64,000 nt of DNA from Escherichia phage moskry, in the sequence record MN850651.1. One strand, 5' to 3'. Positions 18,846 to 20,373 of this stretch are shown piece by piece (position 1 is the stretch's first letter; every line of letters begins with the position of its first letter). The translations under genes and the position numbers were made by a program. The notes beneath the pieces are model-generated. The model searched no databases and had not been told where the DNA came from. It saw only the letters and a list, made by a program, of their open reading frames with translations.

Positions 18846-19478
18846 TTACTTACGAGTTTTTGCATACTGAGCAGCGTCAGCAGCCAAACGACCTGCCTGA
18901 CGAAGTTTTTCTTTAATCTCATCATGAAGTGGTTGAGTATACTTCAAACCTTCGATAGTCAAATAAAGACGATAAAGGTCTGGGGTATCAAGGTTGTTGA
19001 TATGTTGGCCATTACGAAGACTATTGAATTCACGAACGAGTGAAGATGTATCGGATTCAATATCACGAACAAGCGAAGATAGTTGTTTATATTTTTTTTC
19101 CAGGCTAGAAGTATCAAACTTAAGAGCAGGAGCTTTAGGAGTTGCTTTTACTTCAGGCTTAGGCTTAGGTTCAGGTTTTGCTATTGCTTTAGGGGTCGCA
19201 GGTTTAGGAATGGTAGGAGCAGGTTTTACTTTAGGCGAACCCGATTTAGCAGAAACACCACCACTAACAATATCTTTGAATGCTTTAGAAGCTCTGTAAT
19301 ATTCTTTTTGGCTGGAAGTGTCGATACCGTACATGGCTTGAACGTTTTTGAAAAACTCTGTACTAGTTTTTGTACCAGAAATAGCATCGTAAGCAGCTTG
19401 CCATTTCTCTTTTGTCATACGTACGCCGGCTTCGGTGATTACTTCCGTTTCGGCTAAAAATTCATTAAAAGTATACAT
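18846..19478 (-). CDS. Internal-protein-like (CTS) protein with Pro/Lys-rich linker
   Basis: 210 aa; N-terminus MYTFNEFLAE is CTS-like; central PKVKPAPTIPKPATPKAIAKPEPKPKPEVKATPKAP low-complexity tract. Confidence 0.55.
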   Translation of the reverse strand: MYTFNEFLAETEVITEAGVRMTKEKWQAAYDAISGTKTSTEFFKNVQAMYGIDTSSQKEYYRASKAFKDIVSGGVSAKSGSPKVKPAPTIPKPATPKAIAKPEPKPKPEVKATPKAPALKFDTSSLEKKYKQLSSLVRDIESDTSSLVREFNSLRNGQHINNLDTPDLYRLYLTIEGLKYTQPLHDEIKEKLRQAGRLAADAAQYAKTRK

Positions 19479-19513
19479 TGATGGTCCTTAGAAAGTGGGT
19501 TTATTGTTTACTA

Positions 19514-19521
19514 TATTTATA
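19514..19521 (-). promoter_or_regulatory. Late promoter (TATAAATA on minus strand)
   Basis: Plus strand TATTTATA about 36 nt upstream of ATG 19478. Confidence 0.5.
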
Positions 19522-19522
19522 C

Positions 19523-19550
19523 AAAAAAGCCCCAACCTTTCGGAAGGGGC
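19523..19550 (-). terminator. Intrinsic terminator at the end of the tRNA cluster
   Basis: Stem GCCCC/GGGGC with a 6-A run on plus strand (U-run on the minus transcript). Confidence 0.6.
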
Positions 19551-19593
19551 TATATACCTTGTCGGGGTTCCACCTGCTAAGGCAAGTGTTTGT

Positions 19594-19685
19594 ACGAAAC
19601 GCCGGGATTCGAACCCGGTTATTAAGTAGTTGACGCTACTCAATATTTTTAAAAGGCCATATCTCGACCATATCCGAACGTTCCG
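19594..19685 (-). ncRNA. tRNA-like structured RNA (type II tRNA, pseudo-tRNA or rnaC/rnaD-like)
   Basis: Canonical T-arm CCGGG-TTCGAAT-CCCGG; 7-bp acceptor pairing CGGAACG/CGTTTCG; 6-bp variable-arm-like stem; the anticodon arm does not fold canonically (12-nt loop). Confidence 0.3.
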
Positions 19686-19853
19686 TCAAAAACGCTACTC
19701 GGCTTACGGCAAAGATATTTCCTCGAATCGATAATTCGGTGCGCCGTTTCTGCTGTGATGTAAGGGGATATTAACAAATCGTAAAGATTTATTAAGACCA
19801 GTCCTTACTCAGGGAACATCAGTCCGACGACTTACCGGTAGCGACCCGGCTTC

Positions 19854-20198
19854 TTATTTTGACATATCATCAATTTGCTCTCGACGCCGACGCCATAGAT
19901 TAATCGCTTCATTAACACATTCGGCGTTTGGTATATGACGGCAATAATATAATGATTCGCGTTTCTGGAACCGATGTTGCAATGGGATTTCGTTTAAAAG
20001 GTCTTTACGGTCAAAGTATTCAAAACTAGTTAACCCAGAACGGTTTTTAAGGAACTTCCAATGACCGAATTCATTTTGAACATAGATGTAATCTGCATGT
20101 TGGTATAACAAATTAATCAATCGGTCTGAAATAACTGTATCATGTTCGTTAAAATAAAACGTTAAATCATGAACTACTAAGTAAACATTACCTTTCAT
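19854..20198 (-). CDS. Hypothetical protein within the tRNA cluster
   Basis: ORF track start at 20246 overlaps tRNA-Arg; ATG at codon 17 (MKGNVYLVV) gives 114 aa. Confidence 0.4.
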   Translation of the reverse strand: MKGNVYLVVHDLTFYFNEHDTVISDRLINLLYQHADYIYVQNEFGHWKFLKNRSGLTSFEYFDRKDLLNEIPLQHRFQKRESLYYCRHIPNAECVNEAINLWRRRREQIDDMSK

Positions 20199-20216
20199 AT
20201 TTTCCTCACTTGAAGT

Positions 20217-20293
<77 letters not shown>

Positions 20294-20299
20294 AATATA

Positions 20300-20373
20300 T
20301 GACCCAGACCAGATTCGAACTGGTAACCTTTCCCTTATGAGGGGACTGCTGCTAACCATTGAGCTACAGGGCC
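20300..20373 (-). tRNA. tRNA with CAU anticodon (Ile or Met type)
   Basis: 74 nt; T arm ACCAG-TTCGAAT-CTGGT; anticodon loop CTCATAA; acceptor GGCCCTG/CTGGGTC with one mismatch; CCA not encoded. Confidence 0.65.

Follow-up and report, generated by a model that had tools for sequence, protein, structure and literature searches.

Which product, if any, is specified by the DNA that follows the tRNA genes of Escherichia phage moskry? The window analyzed in this study is a stretch of 64,000 nucleotides (MN850651.1), and the interval in question spans its positions 19594–19853. A preliminary description, made from the sequence alone, had read this interval as a 92-nt tRNA-like element followed by roughly 170 nt of unexplained sequence, and had offered three options for the element: a tRNA of type II, a tRNA that has decayed, or a stable tRNA-like molecule resembling the species 1 and 2 RNAs of phage T4. 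The third option holds, quite literally. We regard it as almost certain that the minus strand of the locus carries the genes of two small non-coding RNAs, the orthologues of T4 rnaD and rnaC. The species 1 and 2 RNAs of T4 have been known since the 1970s. By sequence, synteny, and structure, the two genes are ordinary members of the T4 rnaC and rnaD families and the locus is thus already known; the added value of the present analysis lies only in the comparative structure of RNA C and in the distribution of the genes.

The window derives from an RB69-like phage of the T4 type (Mosigvirus). A segment of 421 bases around the feature matched 764 phage records, the best of which (98.8%) were RB69/JS09-type Mosigviruses, and the sequence of the rnaD plus rnaC region is carried by 800 phage records. 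Positions 19593–19857 (265 nt) are 100% identical to Escherichia phage PhAPEC2, and the layout of the locus in RB69 is the same. The gene order corresponds to that of the T4 tRNA region, with 57B, ipI, tRNA.4, tRNA.3, tRNA.2, the tRNA genes, and then the e.8 side. ARAGORN and Rfam agreed on the two adjacent minus-strand tRNA genes that had been pointed out before, tRNA-Arg (UCU) at 20217–20293 (71 bits) and a tRNA with a CAU anticodon at 20300–20373 (54 bits). The latter is the orthologue of T4 tRNA-Ile, with 97.5% identity to T4 positions 71954–72034, which are annotated as tRNA-Ile. Between tRNA-Arg and rnaD, the minus strand contains an open reading frame of 114 amino acids counted from its ATG (19857–20201), a homologue of RB69ORF150c. 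Pfam gave no match for three neighboring open reading frames, this one included.

In the T4 reference annotation (NC_000866), two misc_RNA features follow directly after tRNA-Arg: rnaD, described as "small, stable RNA; species 2 RNA" (119 nt, 71053–71171), and then rnaC, described as "species 1 RNA" (139 nt, 70908–71046). The pairwise alignment with T4 was collinear from the start of rnaD through rnaC and a trailer hairpin to the terminator, and the boundaries of both genes were obtained by mapping the T4 coordinates through this alignment. The rnaD homologue (species 2 RNA, RNA D), assigned by homology to T4, covers 120 nt on the minus strand (19738–19857) and is 87.6% identical to its T4 counterpart over 121 columns; its 5′ end overlaps with the stop codon of the open reading frame before it. 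The tRNA-derived rnaC homologue (species 1 RNA, RNA C), assigned by homology to T4, a covariance model, and its fold, covers 139 nt on the same strand (19593–19731) and is identical to T4 at 138 of 139 positions (99.3%). The flanking protein-coding DNA shares 70–83% identity with T4. An A/U-rich spacer of 6 nt on the minus strand, GAAUUA (19732–19737), lies between RNA D and RNA C and aligns with AAAUUA in T4.

The gene rnaC is therefore found on the strand of the tRNAs, 3′ of tRNA-Ile(CAU), tRNA-Arg, and rnaD and 5′ of a common terminator, and together rnaC and rnaD close the tRNA gene cluster of the phage at its distal end. With these boundaries, the 92-nt element turned out to be the 3′ two-thirds of a 139-nt RNA, and the sequence of about 170 nt was accounted for by the complete RNA D, the 6-nt spacer, and the remaining third of RNA C at its 5′ end. 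T4 shares the order of the two genes, the 6-nt spacer, the trailer hairpin, the terminator, and the distal position in the tRNA cluster. The differences concern the RB69ORF150c homologue, which parts tRNA-Arg from rnaD here, in RB69, and in T2 but is missing in T4, where tRNA-Arg abuts rnaD; the size of the tRNA cluster, with two tRNAs here versus eight in T4; and the apical hairpin of rnaD, which is unlike that of T4.

On the 3′ side of RNA C, a trailer hairpin (CACUUGC-CUUA-GCAGGUG, 19571–19588, minus strand), recognized by sequence conservation and fold, is kept in T4, T2, VR25, and IME281. It is followed on the same strand by an intrinsic terminator, identified by sequence and fold (GCCCCUUCCGAAAGGUUGGGGC plus U6, 19523–19550), which, judged from the sequence, is the predicted end of the transcription unit comprising the tRNAs, RNA D, and RNA C. 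At this site PhAPEC2 has an annotated terminator, and conservation of the site extends to T4; a simple terminator scan had missed it because of an internal mismatch. Neither a sigma-70-like promoter nor a T4 late promoter (TATAAATA) was found inside 19594–19853, in agreement with the preliminary description, and the nearest TATAAATA on the same strand (19514–19521) lies just past the terminator. The earlier statement that 19686–19853 has no open reading frame of 60 or more amino acids was also confirmed, and it holds for both strands of all of 19594–19853, the largest frame having 42 amino acids. A small open reading frame at the start of rnaD, which in T4 consists of ATG plus 12 codons, was rejected because the ATG of T4 is ATA here, so that there is no start codon.

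For the structure of RNA C, an alignment of 16 distinct homologues from at least seven genera was assembled, comprising Tequatrovirus, Mosigvirus, Gaprivervirus, Karamvirus, Tegunavirus, and Gelderlandvirus records as well as IMG/VR contigs, one of which resembles Winklervirus and another of which is identical to a Klebsiella phage. The consensus structure was predicted with RNAalifold, and pairs were counted on the alignment and compared with 500 shuffles and with slid registers. A standard pair was present in 93.7% of the cells, versus 83.2% for the shuffles and at most 45% for the slid registers. Changes on both sides, that is, compensatory changes, occurred in 25 of the 48 pairs, compared to a mean of 11.1 in the shuffles, and none of the 500 shuffles matched the observed values for percentage paired, compensatory pairs, or covariation score. 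The consensus structure is also the minimum-energy fold of the single 139-nt sequence (z = −4.6). The RNA C copy of phiR1-RT likewise takes up this shape when folded alone (z = −7.2), and its 7-bp closing stem is perfect.

The ends of the molecule form an acceptor-like stem, in which nt 2–8 (CGAUUCG, 19724–19730, minus strand) pair with nt 131–137 (19595–19601, minus strand); the latter are followed by U138, A139, and a conserved CAA. This closing stem contains two compensatory pairs (G-C to A-U and A-U to G-C), and its covariation was reached by none of the 500 shuffles. Two U.U mismatches within the stem are kept in most genera and are replaced by U-A and C-G in the Tegunavirus copies. A long arm supported by covariation follows (nt 9–77, 19655–19723, minus strand), made up of a 3-bp base and an interrupted helix of about 23 bp. 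Its apical loop carries an invariant UUGA, and 13 of the 23 pairs in its upper helices are compensatory. A single-stranded, A/U-rich linker (CCUUUUAAAAAUAUU) lies next to the hairpins of RNA C. A 10-bp hairpin with the conserved loop CGUCAA (nt 87–112, 19620–19645, minus strand), compensatory in eight of its ten pairs, ends 1 nt before the T-arm. The T-arm itself, which adjoins the closing stem (CCGGG-UUCGAAU-CCCGG, nt 114–118 with 126–130, 19602–19618, minus strand), had been recognized as perfect before; it has a 5-bp stem and the canonical loop UUCGAAU. It is paired in 100% of the cells and includes two compensatory pairs, its variants ranging across the homologues from CCGGG/CCCGG to CCUGG/CCAGG and CUUGG/CCAAG.

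The 7-bp acceptor stem proposed earlier pairs nt 47–53 with nt 131–137. It can be drawn and is paired in 86.6% of the cells, but without a single both-side change among the 16 homologues. All 500 shuffles were as good or better in percentage paired and in both-side changes, as were 493 of 500 in covariation score. Furthermore, the 5′ strand of that stem (an internal ACGGAAC) lies in a hairpin in which four of seven pairs covary, and the earlier fold is therefore an alternative pairing without comparative support. A second register of the 92-nt fold was tried as well and showed no covariation either.

RNA C is best described as a remodeled tRNA in which the acceptor/T-arm half has been kept and the decoding half lost. 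As in the canonical tRNA (RF00005), its ends form a 7-bp stem that stacks on a T-stem of 5 bp, the loop of which is UUCGAAU, four helices surround a junction, and the gene occupies a slot between tRNA genes. Unlike in a tRNA, the supported helices end in loops of 4 and 6 nt and there is no 5-bp stem with a 7-nt anticodon loop; about 10 nt of single strand are found where a tRNA has 1 nt, and the position of the D-arm holds a helical arm of about 65 nt. As RNA C lacks an anticodon loop, it cannot decode. Two U.U mismatches in the acceptor, the missing encoded CCA (the DNA continues after the acceptor-like stem with U-A-C-A-A), and scores below the ARAGORN and Rfam thresholds further distinguish it from tRNAs. 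Given the two conserved mismatches and the absence of an encoded CCA, recognition by RNase P, the CCA-adding enzyme, or a synthetase is only putative.

Neither ARAGORN nor Rfam at gathering thresholds called a tRNA in 19594–19853, which leaves the type II option of the preliminary description without a detector call. For neither RNA does Rfam 15 contain a matching family. When 19450–19950 was searched against Rfam at permissive settings, the best match was tRNA-Sec with 17 bits, compared to a gathering score of 47 (E = 1.3), and it covered exactly the 92-nt element; the other matches (isrK, PyrR, and others) had E values of 0.4 or more, and several simply lay on the terminator. The preliminary description had counted the lack of both a covariance-model hit and a stable transcript from the interval against its reading. 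Rfam gave no such hit because it has no model for RNA C or RNA D, but stable transcripts have been recorded for the T4 orthologues by Northern blot and RNA-seq (PMC9697503).

We built a covariance model for rnaC from the alignment of 16 homologues. It scored 158 bits over positions 1–139 of the RNA, which is the sole copy in the window, and retrieved 24 phage homologues with 107–158 bits. Ordinary tRNAs at metagenome and bacterial loci matched the same model end to end with 20–25 bits. In these alignments, the acceptor stems and the T-arms of tRNA and RNA C coincided, the tRNA D-stem corresponded to the 3-bp base of the long arm, and the 10-bp hairpin took the place of the anticodon arm.

A tmRNA was not found by ARAGORN, and Rfam returned only a 17-nt T-arm match to the permuted tmRNA family (10 bits, E = 8). 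The tRNA-like domain of tmRNA is comparable to RNA C in that its paired ends form an acceptor stem beside a T-arm and a long helix replaces the anticodon side. RNA C differs from tmRNA by having no pseudoknots, no tag reading frame, and no G3.U70 alanine identity pair. The murid herpesvirus 68 tRNA-like RNAs and YrlA, a bacterial Y RNA, are stable non-coding and non-decoding RNAs with acceptor and T-arm features that are processed by host tRNA enzymes. The ends of YrlA form the Ro-binding stem, not an acceptor, and the herpesvirus RNAs, which polymerase III transcribes, are linked with microRNAs; neither has a sequence or Rfam relationship to RNA C. The resemblance of RNA C to the tRNA-like domain of tmRNA, and to other tRNA mimics without a decoding role, is one of principle only.

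RNA D is a structured RNA unrelated to RNA C; its core is invariant, and its apical hairpin can be freely replaced. In an alignment of 14 homologues, the first 50 nt and the last 25 nt were invariant. Fold and alignment revealed a 5′ hairpin of 5 bp with the invariant 7-nt loop GUCGCUA (19834–19850, minus strand), the closing pair of which covaries from A-U to G-C. The remainder of the molecule is closed by a 7-bp stem (GUCGUCG with CGGCG(C)AC), and several inner pairs are compensatory. The apical part exists in three unrelated sequence versions, all of them hairpins at the same place. When RNA D was compared with RNA C and with the trailer, complementary runs did not exceed 8 nt, a length close to that expected by chance.

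Across the Tevenvirinae, rnaC occurs as a tRNA-like cassette in at least seven genera. In other genera, the spacers between rnaC and the adjacent tRNAs measure 4–11 nt. In Karamvirus EcL8g, tRNA-Trp is followed after 6 nt by rnaC and, after another 5 nt, by tRNA-Gly; a contig with rnaC of the Karamvirus type (L018) has tRNA-Met, rnaC, and tRNA-Gly, and Gelderlandvirus has tRNA-Trp, rnaC, and tRNA-Gly. The Winklervirus arrangement is a weak tRNA, rnaC, and tRNA-Trp, and in Tegunavirus a tRNA (tRNA-Trp) is present on the 3′ side of rnaC only. In Dhakavirus IME281, the trailer hairpin comes directly after rnaD, and rnaC is absent as a precise cassette. Five genera have rnaC without rnaD, and IME281 and UPEC07 have rnaD without rnaC; RNA D was not detected by BLAST in the genera that carry rnaC between tRNAs. 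Since each gene occurs alone, the two RNAs are separable, and since natural phages without rnaC or rnaD exist, neither RNA is essential. The isolate Virsaitis27 has a damaged T-loop in its rnaC.

Beyond isolated phages, a pattern scan of metagenomes (CGAGGA...GGYTCRAATCCNRGCG) was not stringent enough, and most of its matches were unrelated tRNAs; only one true rnaC homologue (L097) was present among the 80 loci listed and searched. In bacterial genomes, a loop-plus-T-arm pattern yielded 34 loci, none of which matched the rnaC model, and thus no cellular homologue was found. The genes rnaC or rnaD are annotated in few records (e.g., RB3, RB6, and RB55). Most related GenBank records either have no annotation at the locus, as is the case for the RB69 RefSeq entry and PhAPEC2, or place a hypothetical coding sequence over it.

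Both T4 RNAs have been described as late-accumulating by RNA-seq and Northern blot (PMC9697503), and their role was called unknown in 2010, 2022, and 2025 (PMC3014915, PMC9697503, PMC12685909). From the anatomy of the locus and the T4 literature, we infer that rnaD and rnaC would be co-transcribed with tRNA-Ile(CAU), tRNA-Arg, and the RB69ORF150c homologue from upstream promoters, and that transcription would stop at the intrinsic terminator at 19523–19550. The host tRNA-processing machinery may then excise the RNAs: endonucleases would cut in the A/U-rich spacers, the acceptor/T-arm minihelix of RNA C would be recognized in the manner of RNase P, and 3′ exonucleases would trim the ends, so that RNA C and RNA D would both accumulate as stable RNAs. 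We consider this processing route probable. According to Paddock and Abelson and to Pragai and Apirion, species 2 and species 1 reportedly arise from a dimeric precursor that host endonucleases cut, and RNase III is said to cleave species 1 RNA in vitro, which would fit the long helical arm of RNA C.

As for function, the tRNA-like half of RNA C may enter tRNA processing and be recognized by a host or phage tRNA-binding factor, which the invariant loops would bind or titrate late in infection. The target of such a decoy could be, for instance, a tRNA-targeting anti-phage nuclease or an enzyme of tRNA maturation or turnover, and the role of RNA C would be a dispensable, host-dependent fitness function. 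This decoy-type function is a tentative suggestion to which we assign a low probability. RNA D would act independently of RNA C. A T4-like phage adapting to the semi-permissive strain E. coli ECOR34 had only one SNP common to all three evolved lines, and this SNP lay in rnaD (PMC12685909). If RNA D were a host-specificity RNA, a base change in rnaD as the sole shared mutation on ECOR34 would follow; the shared SNP could also represent standing variation in the ancestral stock and not independent convergence. The combined proposal, in which RNA C is a neo-functionalized tRNA that acts as a decoy for a host tRNA factor and RNA D a second, independent host-specificity RNA, is one that we consider unlikely.

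The most serious rival is a role in cis. RNA C and RNA D would then be mere parts of the 3′ end of the tRNA operon, with no function in trans: their structures and tRNA-like punctuation would direct processing and shield the upstream tRNAs and mRNA from 3′ exonucleases, and the stable RNAs would be by-products. The constant location at or in tRNA clusters, in T4-type genomes just upstream of the terminator, is consistent with such a role, as are the precise loss of rnaC without disturbance of the rest and the fact that the literature names no target or partner for either RNA. However, unpaired runs are invariant across genera, with about 40 consecutive nucleotides in RNA D, and so are the CGUCAA and UUGA loops of RNA C, which a block to exonucleases would not need. 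In Karamvirus and Gelderlandvirus, moreover, rnaC is found in the middle of the cluster between tRNAs and not at the 3′ end, and the rnaD SNP common to all evolved lines suggests a phenotype. On this evidence, an exclusively cis-acting role appears improbable.

The RNAs might also be small regulators that base-pair with phage or host mRNAs, possibly together with Hfq, a reading that we judge to be quite improbable. The A/U-rich single-stranded linker of RNA C beside hairpins and the invariant internal-loop sequences of RNA D would suit it, and the term "small regulatory RNAs" is used in PMC9697503. Yet the A/U linker varies between genera, the complementarity between RNA D and RNA C is at the level of chance, and both RNAs lack at their 3′ end the terminator hairpin and U-tail to which Hfq usually binds, the terminator being located about 40 nt past RNA C. 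A review from 2010 stated that no trans-acting regulatory RNA had been characterized in T4 (PMC3014915), and the literature on "species 1 RNA" and on T4 RIL-seq or Hfq gave no function or target.

A decayed tRNA pseudogene next to non-functional spacer, which includes the second option of the preliminary description, is hardly tenable. A T-arm and an acceptor-like stem in the absence of an anticodon arm and of any detector call would be expected of such a relic, and the damaged T-loop of Virsaitis27 points the same way. Nevertheless, RNA C shares 99.3% identity with T4, compared to 70–83% for the neighboring genes, and displays 25 compensatory pairs across at least seven genera. Conservation stronger than that of the neighbors, combined with compensatory changes, means that RNA C is not decaying, and the T4 orthologue accumulates as a stable RNA (PMC9697503).

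It is scarcely more credible that the interval encodes small proteins. Many related records do place one to three hypothetical coding sequences over the region, and open reading frames of 34–51 amino acids exist, but the substitutions are compensatory in RNA helices, the 42-amino-acid frame spans the rnaD/rnaC junction, which is nonexistent in genera with only one of the RNAs, and the indels in central rnaD are not multiples of three. Finally, a functional decoding tRNA of the class II or selenocysteine-like type can be dismissed as next to impossible: although tRNA-Sec is the best sub-threshold Rfam match and a hairpin precedes the T-arm by 1 nt, as a class II variable arm would, that match reaches 17 bits against a gathering score of 47 (E = 1.3) and relies on the acceptor stem that lacks covariation, and none of the helices has a 7-nt anticodon loop.

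Taken together, the account given here, with the identity of the two genes as T4 rnaD and rnaC, their production from the tRNA transcription unit, their structures, and the inferred function, is very likely the best explanation of the locus. Its practical value lies in the fact that most records miss the locus or cover it with a spurious "hypothetical protein" coding sequence, and that there is no Rfam family for it. The structure of RNA C supported by covariation corrects the natural hand-fold. It also singles out nucleotides that are constrained beyond pairing, namely the CGUCAA loop, the apical UUGA, and the tandem U.U of the acceptor stem, to which the invariant core of RNA D can be added; these are obvious handles on the role of two abundant late RNAs. 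If the decoy and host-specificity proposal were true, two T4 RNAs that have been orphans for 50 years would turn out to act in counter-defence or to determine host range at the level of RNA.

In many GenBank records of T4-like phages, rnaC and rnaD, the homologues of the T4 species 1 and species 2 RNAs, are covered by one to three coding sequences annotated as 'hypothetical protein'. The annotation under the rnaC/rnaD match is 'recombinational endonuclease subunit D13' in one record and 'putative transmembrane protein' in another. These protein-coding annotations look like gene-caller artefacts laid over non-coding RNA genes. Just upstream of rnaC (1510-1647) in the Erwinia phage Virsaitis27 locus (L002), a weak tRNA (1431-1502; Rfam, 36 bits) was found, which was missed by ARAGORN and is unannotated in its record.

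Between tRNA-Arg and rnaD, the window carries a 114-aa ORF on the minus strand (19857-20201), a homologue of RB69ORF150c for which no Pfam match was found. The ORF's stop codon shares bases with the 5' end of rnaD, and a longer form of the same ORF with a TTG start (19854-20246) would overlap tRNA-Arg. ORFs of this type are present in T2, RB69, and PhAPEC2 but absent from T4, where tRNA-Arg directly abuts rnaD. The CAU-anticodon tRNA (20300-20373, minus strand) was named tRNA-Met by ARAGORN. Because it is 97.5% identical to T4 71960-72033, which is annotated as tRNA-Ile, it is probably an AUA-reading isoleucine tRNA with a modified C34 rather than a methionine tRNA.

Downstream of RNA C, a 7-bp trailer hairpin (CACUUGC-CUUA-GCAGGUG; 19571-19588, minus strand) precedes the terminator (19523-19550, minus strand). 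Directly after the terminator, the T4 late-promoter motif TATAAATA is located at 19514-19521, ahead of the next gene (18846-19478). The trailer hairpin was kept in T4, T2, VR25, and IME281, including the case lacking rnaC: in IME281 (L008, 1499-1700), rnaC is missing as a precise cassette and the hairpin is joined straight to rnaD. In UPEC07 (L007, 1501-1700), rnaC is replaced on the 3' side of rnaD by a GC-rich repeat that forms a hairpin and is present twice (CGGACGGUGCGUCCGG and CGGAUGGUGCAUCCGG).

The rnaC copies of the Gelderlandvirus and Klebsiella-phage type (L006 and L019) form a second class, which retains the acceptor-like stem, the T-arm, and the CGUCAA hairpin; the long-arm sequence differs, yet folds as an extended arm. 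The T-loop of the Virsaitis27 rnaC carries a 1-nt deletion and a substitution (GGUGCAUCCC). Tandem U.U mismatches between rnaC nt 5-6 (window 19725-19726) and nt 133-134 (19598-19599) interrupt the acceptor-like stem at its centre. They are retained in 14 of the 16 homologues aligned, among which only the Tegunavirus copies have Watson-Crick pairs instead, and could represent a recognition or anti-recognition feature.
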